A stretch of DNA of 49,496 bases from Candidatus Omnitrophota bacterium (GTDB lineage: Bacteria; Omnitrophota; Gorgyraeia; Zapsychrales; Aceulaceae): positions 1 through 49,496 of the forward strand of contig JAKQPK010000060.1 of assembly GCA_029564765.1 (NCBI GenBank). The letters are read 5' to 3'. Shown piece after piece: positions 1-49,496 of this stretch. A model generated the notes under the pieces. That model had not been told where the DNA came from and made no database searches. It saw only the letters and a program-made list of their open reading frames with translations. How positions within the stretch are numbered: position 1 is the first letter of the stretch; each line of letters starts with the position of its first letter. A program made the position numbers and the translations under genes.

Positions 1-284
1 CGCCTTTCATCGAACGTGCGCGAGGCCCAGTCCACGGCCGCATCGATAACATCCCGCGTGATCCCGCTGTCCTTCTGCCTGAACTCCTTCGGCTGATAGC
101 AATAAGCACAACGCAGATTGCAGTCCTGCGTCATCAGGAAATAAACCGTGGTGTATTCCTGCTTGCCGTCCGTTATCGAACCGATATCGAACATGCCTTC
201 GGACTTGTACCGTTTGATCACTTCCCGGCACTGTAGCGGCAGATCGCCGCATGCCTTGCTGTTCTTAAGTTCAAATACCGGCAT
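1..284 (-). CDS. Radical SAM protein, N-terminal part (truncated by window edge; not in ORF track)
   Basis: Manual translation from ATG 284 (GGAGG upstream): MPVFELKNSKACGDLPLQCREVIKRYKSEGMFDIGSITDGKQEYTTVYFLMTQDCNLRCAYCYQPKEFRQKDSGITRDVIDAAVDWASRTFDER. CxxxCxYC motif at 99-122. Confidence 0.9.
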   Translation of the reverse strand, partial: MPVFELKNSKACGDLPLQCREVIKRYKSEGMFDIGSITDGKQEYTTVYFLMTQDCNLRCAYCYQPKEFRQKDSGITRDVIDAAVDWASRTFDER

Positions 285-672
285 CCGTCCTCCAATCCAG
301 CTTGCTTAAACCCGGTTCGATCTCCTCAATATCCAGCCCGAGTTTGTCCCTGAGAATCTGCCGGTGCGTATCGTTAAGCTCAACAACGTGCGAGACGTAA
401 ATCTTGTCCCTGTGCTTACCGGCCAGAAACAGAACAAACGCCGAAACGTTTCCCTTTTCGCCTTCAACGCCCAGATCCCTGTAAACCTCGCAAAGAACAT
501 CAACCAAAGCCTGAACGCTCATAAACCGTTTGTGCGTAAAACACTGAACAGTCAATTCGTCGAGGTTATTCCTGCACCAGTTCACCAGCTCGCTGACGGC
601 ATTCTCGCCTTCCAGCCGCGCGATCCTGAACGATACTTCCTGTGCTTTTGTCTGATCCTGAAACATTCCCAT
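271..672 (-). CDS. Hypothetical protein between the Cys-rich protein and the radical SAM gene
   Basis: TGATG overlap with the upstream stop and a 14-nt overlap with the radical SAM start. No recognised motif. The start could also be at 678. Confidence 0.7.
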   Translation of the reverse strand: MGMFQDQTKAQEVSFRIARLEGENAVSELVNWCRNNLDELTVQCFTHKRFMSVQALVDVLCEVYRDLGVEGEKGNVSAFVLFLAGKHRDKIYVSHVVELNDTHRQILRDKLGLDIEEIEPGLSKLDWRTDAGI

Positions 673-1397
673 CACCATGAATAAGGGTTACATTTACAAT
701 TCCACGCGCTGTGGTTATGCCCGCCCGAATACTCGCACGTCCCCCAGTTCAATCCGGGCGGTGTATACACACACCAATCCCACGGCACATATCCGTCCCA
801 CGCAACAGGAGGATTTGCCGATTTATATGGATGCTCTGTCGCGGACGGCAGGTTGATACTGGCGCAAATCCAGTAATGATTGATCGAGTGGTGACATTCC
901 GAATATTTATGATCATCACACGCCACGCCCGCGTGCGAACACGTCGTATAGTGATATCCGCAGTCCGCGCAATACTGGCACTGCTCGGTTTCGCAGATGC
1001 AACCGGTCATGAGCGCCTGAACCTTCTGCGTCATCTCCCTGAAATGAACACCCCTGACCTCGGTTGAAAGCGCCGTAATCGTGGGATCCGTGAAATCCAT
1101 GCATCCGGAACTGTCCTGCGGACAATACCCGGATTCACCGCGGCCCGATTTGCAAGCCGCCAATTCCGTGCGTAGTTGATCGACATGCACCTTCCGGATC
1201 TCCGTCACCAAATTCGTGATCGTCGGATCCGTAAAAGACGCCTGCGTAAGCCCGCGCCGGACAAACTCGGTGTTCAGAAACGACCTCAGCTCATCGATAT
1301 GCACCTTGCGCACCTTCGTGGATAAATCCGTAAGTACCGGATCCGTCCAAGCCGGTGTATTTGATGAGCATTGTTTTGGGGGCAACTTATGCGCCAT
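672..1397 (-). CDS. Cys/His/Trp-rich protein with three [WF]TDP...H..[EQ][LM] repeats; tail-module protein
   Basis: 17 Cys in total, 13 of them in residues 133-241. Repeats start at W17, F55 and F102. Lies in the tail operon. Confidence 0.8.
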   Translation of the reverse strand: MAHKLPPKQCSSNTPAWTDPVLTDLSTKVRKVHIDELRSFLNTEFVRRGLTQASFTDPTITNLVTEIRKVHVDQLRTELAACKSGRGESGYCPQDSSGCMDFTDPTITALSTEVRGVHFREMTQKVQALMTGCICETEQCQYCADCGYHYTTCSHAGVACDDHKYSECHHSINHYWICASINLPSATEHPYKSANPPVAWDGYVPWDWCVYTPPGLNWGTCEYSGGHNHSAWNCKCNPYSW

Positions 1398-1405
1398 ATC
1401 TCTCC

Positions 1406-1897
1406 CTACGAGGCGTAAACCGCCGTCTTATCGAAAAAGCCTTTTGTCCCTGATGCATTCGTTCCGTAATACTTGTTGTTCCCGGGTGAAGCCGCGCCGC
1501 TCTCAAGCTTCGCGGTCGAAACCCCGCCGTCCTTTAACTGCAACTGATCGCCCGCCGATACCTGAAACACTGCCGTATCGATAAGACCATCCAGATATTC
1601 CGGTGTCGTATCGCTGACATCCGCCTTCAATTTATTGGGCGAATTCTCGGTCGGCAGAACACCAGCCGCTGAAGGCACGCTTGCAAGACCCGTCAAAGCC
1701 GTTCCGCTCACCTTGCTGGCTGAGGTGATCTGCGCCAGTTTCGTATCCTCAATCCCCGCGCCCGGAGCCACCTTGTCGTTCGTGATCTGGAGGGCAGGAT
1801 CTGTCAACAGCTCCAGCGCCTCCCAGTTTGCCCGGCACGCCGGAGGGAAATTGATCAACAGCATGTCGTTTTCCGGTTTAGTCTTGTCCCAAGCCAT
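1406..1897 (-). CDS. Short tail-fibre-like protein
   Basis: Start MAWDKTKP after GAGGTG. Fibre-like motifs (ITNDKVA, IEDTKLA, LQLKDGGVSTAKL). Located downstream of gpJ. Confidence 0.6.
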   Translation of the reverse strand: MAWDKTKPENDMLLINFPPACRANWEALELLTDPALQITNDKVAPGAGIEDTKLAQITSASKVSGTALTGLASVPSAAGVLPTENSPNKLKADVSDTTPEYLDGLIDTAVFQVSAGDQLQLKDGGVSTAKLESGAASPGNNKYYGTNASGTKGFFDKTAVYAS

Positions 1898-2153
1898 CGC
1901 CCACCTCTCTTTTCTGGTACGCCTCGGCAACCTCGTTCATGTCGTGAAGCTCGATCCCATGCTCGCGTAACATCTGGACCCAGCAGACATCATGAAGCGT
2001 CATCTGCCGGGCATAGTTCTCCGCCTGCTCGGCACAGGTGAAAACAATCGGCTTCCTTTTCGGCATACGCAAAATAATGTCACCCTTGACCGCCACATAC
2101 GCCATGTCATCCGGTATCTCTTTTTTGCATTTATTACAGATCAACTTGTCCAT
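1878..2153 (-). CDS. Small putative Zn-binding protein (CxxC...HxxC)
   Basis: CNKC near the N-terminus and HDVC distally. AAGGAG SD. Overlaps both neighbours. Confidence 0.7.
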   Translation of the reverse strand: MDKLICNKCKKEIPDDMAYVAVKGDIILRMPKRKPIVFTCAEQAENYARQMTLHDVCWVQMLREHGIELHDMNEVAEAYQKREVGDGLGQD

Positions 2154-2372: not shown

Positions 2373-5300
2373 CTAAATCCCGTGGCTGTGCCAGTCGAAC
2401 ATGCCGGTCTGCGCTACGCCCTGGGCGTCGTACAGCTTCACCGTAAAACCGGTGATGCTTTTATCCGAAAATTGTGAATAGATGCCGCTTCCGCTTCGTA
2501 TCTCGATATGAACGCTTGGCTCCTCGTGGTATGTCTTGCCGAAGAAAACCTGCTTGCCGTCGACTGCCGAAACAACAGTAGCGTTGCCGTAGTCATCGAC
2601 ATCCGGCAGGTCACCAAAATACTGAAACGTCGAACAGGTGATCTCATCGCCGATATTCTCTCGGTACAGCGTGAGTTCGATCTGAAAGTACCGGCAGTAA
2701 TAATCACCGGGCTGATAATCTTCCCAATCTTTCCAGGTGATGTTGTCCTCTGAAATGCGTATCCGGAAACTGGCTGACCTCAACGTTTCCTGACCTGTGA
2801 ACCGATATGATGGGCTGTCGTTAAACTTCGTTACCCCATCGCTGTCAAACCTCCTGCCCAAAGATGTCGAAACGATCACGTCGATGCCGATATAAACGCT
2901 CGCCACATACCCGAAATCCCTGATCGGCGTCGTATACGTCCCGGACATAACACCGTCCGTGATCACGATCGACTCGCCTTCCTTTTCGATACTGTTCTTC
3001 ACGCCTTCCCAGAGCGGTTGTTCCTGATACTCTGCGATGATATTTCTGAAAGGAATCTCGGTGATCGTGACAACCGCCTCTTTTGCATTCACAGAATAAT
3101 TACCCGAGGTATCGATCCCTTTGATCCAGTACCGCTGGCCGATACCGCGTTTGACATCTTTGGTGAGATAATGCGTTCCCTGCTGAAGCGTAATAAATTC
3201 AGCGCTCTCCCAGTCAAGGCCGCGCCGGATCTCATATCCCCAAACATCCACGTCCGGGATCGGCGTCCATCCGAAATACAGCATGTCCCTGTTCCGGTTA
3301 ACCAGAAACGACGGCACATCAGATGGCGGTGCAGATTTGCCCACAATCGTGATCGTGCTTTCGGGCGCGCTTCCGAGGGCGCTTTCTTCATTAAGGGAAT
3401 CAAGCGACGTTACCCTGACCTTATAGGTGTGGTGATCGACGATATCGCCAATGATCCGGAAATTCGTCCCCGAAGTTTCTCCCCGCGCGCGCCAGCTTAA
3501 ACCGTCATCATCGCTGATATAAATTTTCGCCTTGGCGTATGACTTGACGAAATGATCCACATAGGCCGGGTGGTCGAACCAGACATCAATCGCGTTCTCG
3601 ATCGTTCCGTCTGTCTTCTTGACCAGCGATTCGGTCAAGCTGAGATTATTGACTGCCGGTATCTCGCTCGATAAAGACGAATAGTTATTCTGCGGAAGGA
3701 TAATGTCCGAATCGTCATACACCGCTTCGTTGTATTCCAGCGCGGATATCTGAACCTCGCTTTTGCCTTCCCGCTGGATCGCCACCACCCTGAAATCTTT
3801 TTTGACCTTGTTCGTCTCGCCTATCGCAAAAACATCGAAGGCCTGAGGGTCTTCCGGGAACGCTTCACACGAAACCTCCGTATGCGTACCGGTCGGCGAA
3901 GTGATAAGCCGCTCCTCGAGCGTATCGTCCGAGAATCGAACCTGAATCTTGTAAGACTTTCCGTCCTCAATGACCATTGCCCTGTCTAATTTGACAAGCG
4001 CCGCGGTACTGCCATCCTGCACCCGGCCGGAGAACCCCCACTGCGGAACATCGTGCGATATTGAAATGACATCTCCGGCCTGACAGGCGATCGCATCAAT
4101 CCCAGCCTTAAACGTGACCGAACGGTTGATATACCGCGCCACCTTTAACGCATACCTCGCCGCTCGGATCGCGTAACTTGCGCCGGTCGTAAAAAGCCGG
4201 ATCTGACTTTTACGCATCGGCTCACCAGAAGCCAGCGATTCTTCATCGATGTAGGCGACCGTTTCCTGCTGGTAGTTTTTCTCTTTATCGGTAAACTGCA
4301 CCTCGATCACGTTCGGCACCTCTTTCATCGTCTTCCAGCTCTGCGCAAACGTGTCCTTGAGGATATTGCCCATGCCGAACAGCTGGGTCGGATTCGTGAT
4401 CTTGTCGATCTTGAATGCCAAACCGCCCGCGCTGTAAACCGGCATGGCATTGAACGTGGCGCATAATTGGATCAGAACGTCGAGCGCCCTGTTGTTGCTG
4501 TCGATAACCACATCCATCCTGAACCGTTTCTCGTAACCGCCCTGACCGTCCGCAACTTTCTCCTCGCAATACTGCGACATCTCAAGAAGCGAAGCGTTGT
4601 CCAGATTCCCGGATGAAATAAACTCGCCCAGCCCGAAACGGTTGCTGATAATAAAATCCCGCAGGCACCAGACAGGGTTTCCGGAATACCTCTGGGCAAA
4701 CGTCACACCATCCCATGAAAGCAAAGTGTCGTCCGCAAGCAATCGGTAATCTGCCCCATCCCAGTAATAATCATCCCAAGCAACCGGGTCCGTACCGCTT
4801 CTGACATCCGGCACAGAAACCTTCCTGCCTTTAACAACCGATGTGATGTTCGGCATCGATCCTGAAAGCTGATCGGTCGCCAGAAGCTGAAGCCCTAAAA
4901 GCGCGGTATTGGGATAACTCAAATCATCTGTCTTAAGCTCATCGATCTGGAAAAGTAAAAGGTCGCCCTGCTTTAAGGGCTGAAGCGAACTGTCCTCGCT
5001 GGTGCGGGTAATGCGGATGTCGTACTGGCCCGGCGTAAGCCCTGCCTTGCGAAATACACGCCTCACTGAAGAACGCGACTGCGCCGAAATAGTTGTCTCA
5101 CCCAGATCGATATATGTCCCCGCGGAATGCTCTTTGTATTCGACGCGATAAGTAACGCTCCAGCTCTGGATATCACCGGAACTGGAATTCTGCTGATAAA
5201 GGCCGTTATTGAGCCGCAAGTGGATCTCGAAAGCTTCCACATCCAGATCGACCGTGGTGTAAATATAGGGATTGTTTTGCGTAAGGTTGGCGCTGACCGG

Positions 5301-5990
5301 ATAAATATTGTGCAGATCCTCGAAATTCGGGATCATGCTCTGGTAGTTCGTGCCAAAACGCCTGGTGATGGTTACGCCTTCAAAATTGACGATCGGATTA
5401 TTATTCAGCTCGATATCTTCTATCGACTCGATCTCGCCCTCGCAGATCGCCAGAAGCACATTCAAATAATGCTTGTCGCCGTCCTCCCAGAGGAACTGGT
5501 TGATGATATTCCCGCCGACTCGATGCTCTCCGTAAACCACTGCCACCGGAACCCCGACCTCCTGAATCGTTTGCACTCCATCCCATCCGTAGGTAGGCGA
5601 TCCCTCGTCCATCCCGGCAGAACCGAGATTGAAATCCGGCATTTTCGGCTGGTTCATGTACTGGTAAATGGCGTAACCCATCGAAAGAACAAAGAACGTG
5701 AACAGAAACGGATGCGCTACCGCAGCCGCCCAGACCGCTGAAACAATAAACGAAATAACAGCCACCACCGGAGCCTTGACTTCCGGGGCAACAACGATCT
5801 CGTCGCCCTCTTCGATACGTGAATCAAGGTCTTCAATGCGTTTGCCGGTAACGATCACGCGTTTGTCTTTATAATCAAACCCGGAATTATCGAGATAATC
5901 GCGCACGGATTTGCTTCTGGAATAGGTAAATTCCAGAACCTGCGCCTCCTCGAGCTTGAACGGATTGTCGATATGACGAACGGATATCAT
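2373..5990 (-). CDS. Central tail fibre / tail tip protein (lambda gpJ-like) with fused N-terminal gpI-like ubiquitin-like domain
   Basis: GVPVAVVYGE, LAICEGEI, YPNTALLG and NPVWCLRD motifs, FN3-like segments and a C-terminal beta domain. Start MISVRH by ATGA overlap at 5987-5990. Confidence 0.88.
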   Translation of the reverse strand: MISVRHIDNPFKLEEAQVLEFTYSRSKSVRDYLDNSGFDYKDKRVIVTGKRIEDLDSRIEEGDEIVVAPEVKAPVVAVISFIVSAVWAAAVAHPFLFTFFVLSMGYAIYQYMNQPKMPDFNLGSAGMDEGSPTYGWDGVQTIQEVGVPVAVVYGEHRVGGNIINQFLWEDGDKHYLNVLLAICEGEIESIEDIELNNNPIVNFEGVTITRRFGTNYQSMIPNFEDLHNIYPVSANLTQNNPYIYTTVDLDVEAFEIHLRLNNGLYQQNSSSGDIQSWSVTYRVEYKEHSAGTYIDLGETTISAQSRSSVRRVFRKAGLTPGQYDIRITRTSEDSSLQPLKQGDLLLFQIDELKTDDLSYPNTALLGLQLLATDQLSGSMPNITSVVKGRKVSVPDVRSGTDPVAWDDYYWDGADYRLLADDTLLSWDGVTFAQRYSGNPVWCLRDFIISNRFGLGEFISSGNLDNASLLEMSQYCEEKVADGQGGYEKRFRMDVVIDSNNRALDVLIQLCATFNAMPVYSAGGLAFKIDKITNPTQLFGMGNILKDTFAQSWKTMKEVPNVIEVQFTDKEKNYQQETVAYIDEESLASGEPMRKSQIRLFTTGASYAIRAARYALKVARYINRSVTFKAGIDAIACQAGDVISISHDVPQWGFSGRVQDGSTAALVKLDRAMVIEDGKSYKIQVRFSDDTLEERLITSPTGTHTEVSCEAFPEDPQAFDVFAIGETNKVKKDFRVVAIQREGKSEVQISALEYNEAVYDDSDIILPQNNYSSLSSEIPAVNNLSLTESLVKKTDGTIENAIDVWFDHPAYVDHFVKSYAKAKIYISDDDGLSWRARGETSGTNFRIIGDIVDHHTYKVRVTSLDSLNEESALGSAPESTITIVGKSAPPSDVPSFLVNRNRDMLYFGWTPIPDVDVWGYEIRRGLDWESAEFITLQQGTHYLTKDVKRGIGQRYWIKGIDTSGNYSVNAKEAVVTITEIPFRNIIAEYQEQPLWEGVKNSIEKEGESIVITDGVMSGTYTTPIRDFGYVASVYIGIDVIVSTSLGRRFDSDGVTKFNDSPSYRFTGQETLRSASFRIRISEDNITWKDWEDYQPGDYYCRYFQIELTLYRENIGDEITCSTFQYFGDLPDVDDYGNATVVSAVDGKQVFFGKTYHEEPSVHIEIRSGSGIYSQFSDKSITGFTVKLYDAQGVAQTGMFDWHSHGI

Positions 5991-6478
5991 TTTCTTAACC
6001 TGTAAAATCCTTCTGTTTTCTTTTTCCATGAAACATCATCGAGCCGCGACACTACGACCCCCTGACGGCAACAATGGATAAACCGCCTCTTGCCGAGTAC
6101 GATCCCGGCATGATCGGCAATACCTCTCGAATTAACAAACAAGACGCCGTCCAATACCTGCGGCGTTTCAACGCGATCCCAATCGTGGCCGTAATGCTCC
6201 TTGAAATAGTCCTTGCCGCTTAAACCCCACACCTTGCTGTATTCCAGATCCTCGATATCAAAAAGTCTGTAACCCAGATCCGCATAAACAAGTTTGAGAA
6301 ATCCCCAGCAATCAAGGCCTTCCATCGTCCGGCCCCTGTGGCGGTATGGGATCCCGAGATATTTCCCGATGATCGCCTTTTCTACATCACATAAATCCGG
6401 CGCGTCGGTACGGACGGAAACGCCCCGAACCGGTGATAATTCTCCAGCACCTTGCACCGCTGTTTTGTTTTGTTGCAT
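5987..6478 (-). CDS. NlpC/P60 tail assembly protein (gpK C-terminal domain only)
   Basis: YLGIPY, GLDCWG, HAGI and FIH catalytic motifs. No JAB domain. Start chosen at the ATG with an AGGAGG SD. Confidence 0.85.
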   Translation of the reverse strand: MQQNKTAVQGAGELSPVRGVSVRTDAPDLCDVEKAIIGKYLGIPYRHRGRTMEGLDCWGFLKLVYADLGYRLFDIEDLEYSKVWGLSGKDYFKEHYGHDWDRVETPQVLDGVLFVNSRGIADHAGIVLGKRRFIHCCRQGVVVSRLDDVSWKKKTEGFYRLRK

Positions 6479-6993
6479 GAAACCTCTCCTCCTGTGTACC
6501 CGCATTCGGCCGACTTAAACTTCCACGCGCAGTAATTACGCGCATATCGACGCGCGGGTAAATCAACGCCCAAGACATCGAACTTCCCGGTTAAGGTAAA
6601 CTCCACGCTCTTCTGGTCTGCGGTATAACTGTCGATATAAAAAACATCGTCCATATGCGCGTCCGGATCCGCCAGCTGGTCGGCCCAGACCATGCGGATC
6701 GTAACCTTCTTGCCTCGAAGATCGAACTGCTCCAGATAAAGCTGAACAAAACGCGACACATTCCCAAGCCGCACTTTGACCTGATCGATCTGCCCCTGAT
6801 TGTTCTCGCCGATAAACTCATGCGTCACCGGAAACTTTGAATACACCAGCCCCTGATACGTCACATCCTGGTCGAACCCCGCGATCCTCAAATCATTAAG
6901 AGAATCGTACTTTTCAAGGACATACAAAAAGATGGGTGCATTTTCCTGCTTCGATTTCTCGCTGATAAATAAGGGGCTGACATCTCTGGGCAT
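6382..6993 (-). CDS. Tail tip protein, lambda gpL-like
   Basis: C-terminal four-Cys motif (CAWKFKSAECGY...CNKTKQRC...FGAFP); position between the gpM-like and gpK-like genes. Confidence 0.85.
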   Translation of the reverse strand: MPRDVSPLFISEKSKQENAPIFLYVLEKYDSLNDLRIAGFDQDVTYQGLVYSKFPVTHEFIGENNQGQIDQVKVRLGNVSRFVQLYLEQFDLRGKKVTIRMVWADQLADPDAHMDDVFYIDSYTADQKSVEFTLTGKFDVLGVDLPARRYARNYCAWKFKSAECGYTGGEVSCNKTKQRCKVLENYHRFGAFPSVPTRRIYVM

Positions 6994-49173: not shown

Positions 49174-49496
49174 TCAGTCACGTTGCAATTGTTTTTTAAG
49201 TTTGACACCTGTCTCTTCAATGAGACTCTTTAGACTCCCATCTAGAACAAGGCTTCCAAATCTTAACGAAACGCCACCTAAGATCTTTGGGTCCGCATGA
49301 TAAACAAAAGTTAACGCTCTTTTTAACTTGTCCGCCAAAACCTGCTCCACACGCCCCTTCGCCTCTATCGACAGATCGACCGCTGTTATAATATCGATCG
49401 TGTTTACATCGGGGCTTATCTGTGAGGCGTCGATCGCCTTGAAATTCTCAACAAATTCACTTACGAGTTGATCCTTAAAAACTGCTGACGATTTCT
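49174..49496 (-). CDS. F-ATPase delta-domain (probably b-delta fusion) protein, C-terminal part (not in ORF track)
   Basis: Manual translation: ...LVSEFVENFKAID...IITAVDLS...DPKILGGVSLRFGSLVLDGSL...QRD stop. Confidence 0.75.
   Translation of the reverse strand, partial: KSSAVFKDQLVSEFVENFKAIDASQISPDVNTIDIITAVDLSIEAKGRVEQVLADKLKRALTFVYHADPKILGGVSLRFGSLVLDGSLKSLIEETGVKLKKQLQRD

Follow-up and report, generated by a model that had tools for sequence, protein, structure and literature searches.

Three radical SAM/SPASM enzymes accompany a cysteine-rich protein in the tail module of an Omnitrophota prophage

The window described here is a stretch of 49,496 nucleotides that makes up the whole of one contig (JAKQPK010000060.1, here C64) in the 1.86 Mb, 98% complete genome of a Candidatus Omnitrophota bacterium. 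Judged by its genes, the element in the window is a lambda-like prophage of this bacterium. At the left end of the window lies the gene for a protein of 241 residues with a cysteine-rich tail, followed by the start of a cassette of radical S-adenosylmethionine (SAM) enzymes. An initial annotation, made from the letters of the sequence, had proposed that the phage cross-links or metal-loads a fibre or receptor-binding protein with such an enzyme. This interpretation is now partly supported by sequence comparison.

Genes of the cassette

The minus strand at the left end of the window carries, in order, a gene for a 1218-residue J-like fibre protein, two small genes, the genes for proteins of 174, 241 and 133 residues, and the start of a radical SAM gene. 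The gapless junctions described in the initial annotation are present in the sequence. The stop codon of the 241-residue gene overlaps the start codon of the 133-residue gene (TGATG), and the latter gene overlaps the start of the radical SAM gene by 14 nucleotides (open reading frames 271..678 and 3..284).

The first 141 bases of the window are the exact reverse complement of those with which contig C9 of the same genome begins, and the right end of the window (49356-49496) overlaps the end of contig C19, by exactly 141 bases. Because the overlaps are exact at both ends of C64, the contigs C9, C64 and C19 are neighbours in the assembly, and both ends of the window are assembly breaks rather than biological ends. 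The join of the cassette across C64 and C9 is seen unbroken, with the same gene order, in public contigs (for example L007, L009 and L047). The radical SAM gene that had been proposed for the left end from its CxxxCxYC motif continues on C9 to a total of 407 residues. Extension to the left also revealed the SPASM domain and the further radical SAM genes, two in number, for which the initial annotation had called. The complete cassette encodes the 241-residue protein, the 133-residue protein, three radical SAM/SPASM paralogues, a 96-residue protein and an Lcl_C (DUF1566) protein. On C9 the three enzymes are followed by the 96-residue gene, a 183-residue Lcl_C/DUF1566 protein (98.2 bits) and three small open reading frames. 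The main features are as follows.

672..1397, minus strand: open reading frame of the 241-residue protein.
1002..1397, minus strand: triple-repeat domain of this protein (residues 1-132), three copies of TDPxxTxxxTxxRxxHxxELR with one helix each.
675..1001, minus strand: Cys/His/Trp-rich tail of this protein (residues 133-241), the proposed substrate region.
274..672, minus strand: gene of the 133-residue protein, which belongs to no known family; coupled in translation to both neighbours.
3..284, minus strand: first 94 codons of enzyme 1, with TQDCNLRCAYC as its CX3CX2C motif; the remainder lies on C9 (L005:2-1081).
L005:1078-2163 (C9): enzyme 2, a radical SAM paralogue, overlapping the gene of enzyme 3.
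L005:2156-3319 (C9): enzyme 3, a radical SAM paralogue.

The 241-residue protein

The composition reported for this protein was confirmed: its last 109 residues contain 13 cysteines, 9 histidines and 7 tryptophans, and its first 132 residues contain 4 cysteines. Upon alignment of 22 homologues (45-83% identity), nine of the 13 tail cysteines were found to be invariant, so that the cysteine-rich tail cannot be put down to chance. The invariant residues (C133, C135, E136, E138, C140, Y142, C143, D145, C146, G147, C160, C178, W206, W218, W232, C234, K235, C236, N237 and P238) are concentrated in the tail, where the acidic E136, E138 and D145 are interspersed with the invariant cysteines.

AlphaFold2 folds residues from about 10 to 135 with confidence, giving three repeats, each with a helix (block-mean predicted local distance difference test score, pLDDT, of 67-93 over residues 11-130). 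The tail (139-241) is not folded in the model and has a pLDDT below 50. Comparison of the model with the PDB gave no match to a solved fold (best E 1.5), and a search of the ESM Atlas with the tail gave no usable match.

A search of 5.8 billion proteins returned 48 matches to the 241-residue protein, 42 of them full length, with identities of 39-99% and no informative names. When 1.84 billion cluster representatives were searched with a profile, 3,734 relatives emerged, of which only 15 have E below 1e-30. The profile is matched nearly end to end by eight of these 15 and by 10 of 150 among the matches listed; the others listed match mainly the triple-repeat part. Secreted or surface proteins carry this domain alongside RHS, Ig or LamG domains, often with the triple repeat at the C-terminus, and it also ends fibre-like phage proteins. 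Among 144 representatives with the repeats, a cysteine-rich tail follows in 30, the protein ends at the repeats in 63, and other tails occur in 48. There are also short relatives of 147-158 residues (P0059, P0060, P0080, P0092, P0122 and P0154), in which the repeats are followed by a Cys/His tail of 37-42 residues, with runs such as CxCxCxxC. Two narrow scans for the loci of these short relatives returned none.

Because the triple-repeat domain is widespread without a cysteine-rich tail, its three repeats are a property of the fold and not a code for the enzymes. The idea that three repeats serve as three leaders for three enzymes was rejected, since secreted proteins without a cysteine-rich tail also have three. 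The reading of the repeats as an enzyme code was also ruled out by the L046-type protein, in which three repeats go with two enzymes.

The radical SAM/SPASM enzymes

The part of enzyme 1 within the window matches the radical SAM family PF04055 weakly (21.6 bits). Over the extended sequences, the scores are 33.9, 33.7 and 62.5 bits for enzymes 1, 2 and 3, enzyme 1 having been scored on its C9 part, and all lie above the gathering cut-off of 29.5 bits. The CX3CX2C motif is conserved in 100% of the 59, 49 and 42 distinct orthologues of the three enzymes, and seven C-terminal cysteines are conserved in 98-100% of them. The latter form the pattern of SPASM enzymes for two auxiliary [4Fe-4S] clusters. 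The C9 part of enzyme 1 passes the SPASM model TIGR04085 (31.9 bits, cut-off 27) and enzyme 3 passes PF13186 (24.4 bits, cut-off 21.5); enzyme 2 is assigned to the SPASM group by its motif only.

The top NCBIfam model for each enzyme is the PapB ranthipeptide maturase (NF047865), aligned over nearly the whole model. The next best are the Nif11-type, SCIFF, CXXX-repeat, CcpM and QhpD maturases, and the models of QueE, MoaA and NrdG rank far lower or are absent for all three enzymes. The enzymes thus group with maturases of peptides and proteins (PapB, SCIFF/CteB, CXXX-repeat and QhpD) and not with the non-peptide families that the initial annotation had named as the alternative. The closest solved relative of each enzyme is CteB (PDB 5WGG). 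The alignments begin at CteB chain residues 93, 104 and 94 for enzymes 1, 2 and 3, past the RRE domain of CteB. By their sequences, the three are complete SPASM enzymes of the kind that matures peptides or proteins by modifying cysteine; they are devoid of an RRE and belong to no characterised family.

A tree of 48 sequences contains three paralogue clades (support 100/99, 100/98 and 97/94), of which clades 1 and 2 are sisters (100/99). When the tree is rooted at its midpoint, systems that are more distant and have a single enzyme group on the clade 3 side. That the three clades are old and well supported argues for three non-redundant jobs. Among cultured phages, the radical SAM relatives are distant only, with less than 31% identity.

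Co-occurrence of the 241-residue protein with the enzymes

Homologues of the 241-residue protein were found at 121 loci, of which 40 are viral, 11 genomic and 70 metagenomic. A radical SAM gene directly follows the homologue in all 102 loci that have at least 700 bp of DNA downstream, and the proposed co-occurrence of the two genes in phage tail modules is thereby borne out. With a limit of at least 300 bp, the gene is present in 105 of 106 loci. The exception is L082, where the downstream DNA measures only 451 bp and is overlapped by an open reading frame matching the 133-residue protein. Of the 57 loci with at least 4.5 kb, 56 have all three paralogue clades, with one enzyme from each and an unchanged order; the remaining locus, L046, has two enzymes. 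When the putative substrates are clustered at 90%, 70% or 50% identity, no cluster departs from the pairing (30 of 30, 19 of 19 and 5 of 5, respectively).

The pairing is kept in tail modules of both the J-like siphovirus type and the baseplate type, the latter with baseplate-like and PAAR-like neighbours (L043-L045). The genes for the 96-residue, Lcl_C and 133-residue proteins come and go, so that the 241-residue protein is the constant partner of the enzymes. The complete genome of Candidatus Velamenicoccus archaeovorus LiM, an organism of a limonene-degrading methanogenic enrichment, contains a near-identical copy of the system (L047; 94% identity for the 241-residue protein).

One locus, L062, is arranged differently. 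The homologue of the 133-residue protein sits after enzyme 1, and between enzymes 1 and 2 there are two extra genes for SPASM-domain proteins of about 260 residues (L062:8169-9666; 28.3 and 32.9 bits) without a canonical CX3CX2C start.

Triple-repeat proteins with and without a tail extension

As a control, viral contigs were scanned for triple-repeat proteins without the cysteine-rich tail. This gave 14 loci, six of which belong to the 241-residue family and eight of which are new. The four new proteins that extend past the repeats (L130, L132, L138 and L141) are all directly followed by radical SAM genes. None of the four that end at the repeats (L137, L139, L140 and L142) has a radical SAM gene in the DNA examined, which for L139 is only 0.6 kb downstream. 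The presence of radical SAM enzymes hence goes with an extension beyond the repeats rather than with the repeats themselves.

The extensions differ in kind. In L132 the extension has 23 cysteines and the enzyme scores 215 bits on the PapB model, and in L141 the tails are rich in Ser, Tyr and His with few cysteines and the enzymes score about 100 bits. The L138 protein (L138:4405-5520) consists of the triple-repeat domain, a CXXX-like cysteine tract and a Hint autoprocessing module (PF01079, 29.9 bits; PF05203, 38.9 bits), suggesting from its domain order that it may cleave itself after the cysteine tract. Its tail type fits its enzyme type, since the CXXX-like tract goes with a TIGR04115-like enzyme (234 bits, below the cut-off of 350).

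Several of these loci have further features. L130 (6989-8434) encodes a 481-residue phage protein in which the repeats are followed by a tail of about 370 residues with 88 cysteines in CxxCDxD-like repeats. One PapB-like enzyme (225 bits) lies directly downstream; behind it, an IS200/605-like pair and a gene resembling those of lysozymes were recognised by eye. In L132 the genes for the fibre and the triple-repeat protein are closely preceded by a reverse transcriptase gene (5278-6501; RVT_1, 84.3 bits), which may represent a group II intron or else a diversity-generating retroelement. L138 has a collagen-like tail fibre upstream and two radical SAM genes downstream.

In two other contigs (L128:7001-7540 and L129:7001-9101) a collagen-like fibre of 2007 residues is followed by a 179-residue protein with 28 cysteines in about nine CxCxCxx heptads. 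Two genes downstream, L129 has an Asp/Asn beta-hydroxylase-like gene (PF05118, 26.9 bits, cut-off 22.6), which may be an oxygen-dependent counterpart of the radical SAM enzymes.

The 133-residue protein

The protein encoded between the 241-residue protein and enzyme 1 matches no Pfam, NCBIfam or PHROG family. Its 61 distinct homologues all lie inside cassettes, and its gene is absent from the baseplate-type cassettes (L043-L045). The AlphaFold2 model has a mean pLDDT of 79 and no match to a solved fold (best E 0.14). The notion that this protein supplies a separate RRE was not supported by the fold search. A prediction of its complex with the 241-residue protein gave a score of 0.00, which, as controls were not included, counts neither for nor against binding.

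Prophage context and distribution

Two more genes of the tail module lie upstream of the cassette.

1406..1930, minus strand: 174-residue protein, directly upstream of the 241-residue gene, probably a short tail-fibre protein by its position.
2373..6029, minus strand: central tail fibre (J-like), 1218 residues (phrog_31, central tail fibre J, E 3.2e-156).

The J-like gene places the cassette at the distal end of the tail module. Further upstream are the genes for minor tail proteins, tape measure, major head protein, portal and large terminase, recognised by PHROG matches. Residues 67-178 of the J-like protein also match the tail assembly family phrog_32, so that I-like and J-like parts may be fused. 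The 174-residue protein matches no Pfam, NCBIfam or PHROG family; its gene is kept in place in lambda-like cassettes with 80-98% identity. Genes of tail families in PHROG flank the cassettes, and elsewhere the triple-repeat or cassette genes come after baseplate, collagen-like or fibre genes. Past the small open reading frames of the cassette, C9 carries a TetR regulator and an IS200-type transposase (L005:5594-6754; Y1_Tnp, 146.9 bits). The end of the prophage is probably near C9:4.2-5.5 kb.

The genomic relatives of the cassette are found in Omnitrophota genomes. In a sample of 401 such genomes, the repeat domain is present in 16 and a gene like that of the 241-residue protein in eight, the genome of the window being counted in both; the four other genomes of the same family in the sample contain no such element. 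This patchy occurrence is as expected of a phage. Near-identical DNA is present in metagenome runs from activated sludge, wastewater and terrestrial samples belonging to at least eight studies. Parts of the genes are matched with 90-99% likeness by contigs from the RNA libraries of two studies; as carry-over of DNA is possible, these contigs give at most a weak hint of transcription. A search by term of papers on Omnitrophota found no mention of a prophage.

Proposed maturation of the tail protein

In the mechanism proposed here, the 241-residue protein would be made late in infection in the anoxic cytoplasm of the host. Its triple-repeat domain would fold on its own, and the 109-residue tail, rich in cysteines and aromatic residues, would stay unfolded and be modified successively by the three enzymes, which have no RRE. 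Every one of them would make its own set of intramolecular cross-links, most likely thioethers of the ranthionine type between Cys and Asp or Glu. The product would be a compact knob that reductants could not open, and the matured protein, docked by way of its triple-repeat domain, would be placed at the tip of a fibre or of the tail itself.

The order of the genes, the complete catalytic motifs of the enzymes, their invariable co-occurrence with the 241-residue protein and their tracking of the tail extension are established. From these we infer that the tail is the substrate, that it would carry bonds of the type named, that the 133-residue protein has a part in the process and that the product enters the virion. 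Taken by itself, the proposition that the enzymes act on the tail of the 241-residue protein is one in which we have good confidence. For the full mechanism, in which a tail-tip protein is stapled by thioethers through three non-redundant enzymes, the chances are about evenly balanced.

Several observations weigh against the mechanism. No enzyme reaches the cut-off of any characterised family. On the PapB model (NF047865) the scores of enzymes 1, 2 and 3 are 106.3, 101.2 and 166.1 bits with a cut-off of 340, on that of the SCIFF maturase (TIGR03974) 70, 43.9 and 107.8 with a cut-off of 425, and on that of the CrpC family (TIGR04463) 28.1, 23.7 and 49.2 with a cut-off of 525. For QhpD (TIGR03906) they are 52.2, 63.4 and 58.5 (cut-off 453), and for the CXXX-repeat maturase (TIGR04115) 73, 33 and 95 (cut-off 350). 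An RRE or PqqD domain is lacking in the three enzymes, according to Pfam, NCBIfam and the alignment with CteB, and in the model of the 133-residue protein. Of the four computational predictions made with the initial annotation, this is the one that failed, the SPASM domain, the further radical SAM genes and the co-occurrence having been found. The spacing of cysteines and acidic residues in the 241-residue protein differs from the CX3D motif of PapA, and any assignment of bond type is a guess from sequence. With its many Cys and His residues, the tail might serve to bind metal instead. It is also better conserved than the N-terminal domain (mean identity 0.66 versus 0.53), unlike typical receptor-binding tips. 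It is gene position that suggests a place in the virion for the 241-residue protein, which matches no Pfam, NCBIfam or PHROG family and no known virion protein, and which has no relative among 50,697 phage records of cultured phages. The 102 loci are not independent of each other, because some contigs sit in more than one of the three collections. Finally, the 0.9-1.6 kb of DNA available for L128 and L129, with their Cys-heptad proteins, contain no radical SAM gene.

The cassette might instead make a cargo akin to the RiPPs, peptides that are made by the ribosome and modified after translation. The 241-residue protein would then be a long precursor with the repeats as its leader or docking domain, and the modified core would be a toxin, signal or metal-binding agent released at lysis. 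The enzymes are indeed nearest to RiPP maturases, the layout is that of a leader and a core, also in the short relatives P0059, P0060, P0080 and P0092 with their 37-42-residue Cys/His tails, and the Hint module after the cysteine tract of L138 could free a product. The main text of Dieter et al. (2026, PMC13692751) also reports large leader domains and recognition between domains for CrpA/CrpC. However, neither a peptidase nor an exporter was found among the ten genes on C9, the scanned genes of the window or the divergent loci examined. The cassette lies inside runs of tail-fibre genes of two unrelated tail types, and phage proteins of the ordinary fibre-like kind (L137, L140 and L142) likewise terminate in the repeat domain. 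Moreover, the supposed core is better conserved than the supposed leader, the opposite of what is seen in most RiPPs. An origin as cargo is considered unlikely.

Less likely still is that the tail forms a knob binding zinc, iron or copper without covalent cross-links, the enzymes acting on another tail protein, a glycan or a cofactor. Metal sites typically show Cys-x-Cys and Cys/His patterns, AlphaFold2 is often unable to fold such domains, and metal binding is also weighed for CrpA by its authors (PMC13692751). Yet the enzymes strictly adjoin the 241-residue gene while every other neighbour changes, they follow the tail extension rather than the repeats, and all the nearest enzyme families modify peptides or proteins at cysteine; metal binding and cross-linking could, besides, both hold. 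It is very improbable that the element has lost its function and is what remains of a decaying or domesticated prophage. It sits in the chromosome and has relatives in several Omnitrophota genomes, but all its frames are open, the catalytic cysteines are 98-100% conserved, and intact genes are present for head, portal, terminase and tail. The distribution is patchy, which led to the rejection of a domesticated element, and the near-identical DNA comes from runs of at least eight studies.

Thioether stapling of the 241-residue protein might also be one instance of something wider, although the balance of probability is against so broad a view. There may be a class of phage tail-tip proteins in which a triple-repeat adaptor is the built-in docking domain for RRE-less maturases and the tail is matured enzymatically into a knob or rod. 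In anoxic, reducing habitats thioethers made by oxygen-sensitive radical SAM enzymes would then serve where disulfides fail, and related phages would use other enzymes, such as the Asp/Asn hydroxylase-like gene product of L129 or the Hint module of L138.

Cross-linking by radical SAM/SPASM enzymes is known from peptide natural products, and its demonstration on whole proteins (CrpA, 2026) is recent. If the proposed maturation is true, a virus with three such enzymes that matures its own tail protein brings this chemistry into the assembly of virions. The rationale would be covalent links that outlast reducing, sulfidic habitats in which disulfides would fail. A compact set of RRE-less enzymes acting on a folded fusion partner would perhaps also be useful for protein stapling.

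Comparison with known systems

Among peptide systems, PapA/PapB (freyrasin) and SCIFF/CteB come closest, and the window system resembles them in the seven-cysteine SPASM motif of its enzymes and in a cysteine-rich substrate, here a putative one, with acidic residues nearby; as judged by sequence it works as they do, although it belongs to neither. It differs from them in that the enzymes are without an RRE, the putative substrate has 241 residues and includes a folded domain, and the genes lie in a phage tail module. The cassette is, furthermore, without genes for export or leader cleavage, none having been found among the genes scanned. A likeness to the CXXX-repeat (TIGR04115) systems is provided by the phage relative L138, which has short-spaced cysteine repeats beside its 234-bit enzyme; we know of no solved chemistry for the TIGR04115 family.

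The SPASM enzyme QhpD forms several thioethers between Cys and Asp or Glu in a small protein that is kept in a larger assembly, quinohemoprotein amine dehydrogenase. Unlike QhpC/QhpD, the window cassette has no dehydrogenase or tryptophylquinone-forming gene near it. QhpC/QhpD, a protein-level case, is named in the main text of PMC13692751, the paper that describes CrpA and CrpC, which are the closest precedent for the window system.

According to that text, CrpC of Methanococcus voltae is a SPASM enzyme with three [4Fe-4S] clusters that puts ranthionine links on CrpA, a cysteine-rich protein of 28.8 kDa. CrpA has an N-terminal recognition part and a cysteine-rich C-terminal part that structure prediction cannot fold; the small accessory protein CrpB increases the yield, and CrpA is recognised partly domain to domain (PMC13692751). 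Similar clusters are said there to occur across life. The words "phage", "viral" and "tail" are absent from the main text, in which "virus" occurs only in the name of the tobacco etch virus protease.

As far as the main text describes it, the CrpA/CrpC system shares with the window cassette a SPASM enzyme encoded beside a whole cysteine-rich protein, an N-terminal domain and an unfoldable cysteine-rich C-terminal part in this protein, and a small accessory protein. By analogy, one might guess that the 133-residue protein is a CrpB-like chaperone. In contrast to the three window enzymes, CrpC has an RRE. The window system further differs in that it is viral, lies in a tail module and has three paralogous enzymes, and in that its cysteine-rich tail is not a simple repeat.

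The initial annotation knew of no characterised system of this kind. At the level of the modified protein this does not hold, in view of CrpA/CrpC as described in PMC13692751 and the older QhpC/QhpD. The phage setting does appear to be undescribed: searches of the literature gave no account of a phage tail protein matured by radical SAM enzymes. The chemistry has precedents, but there are none for the setting in a viral tail module, the set of three enzymes or the proposed RRE-less recognition of a folded domain.

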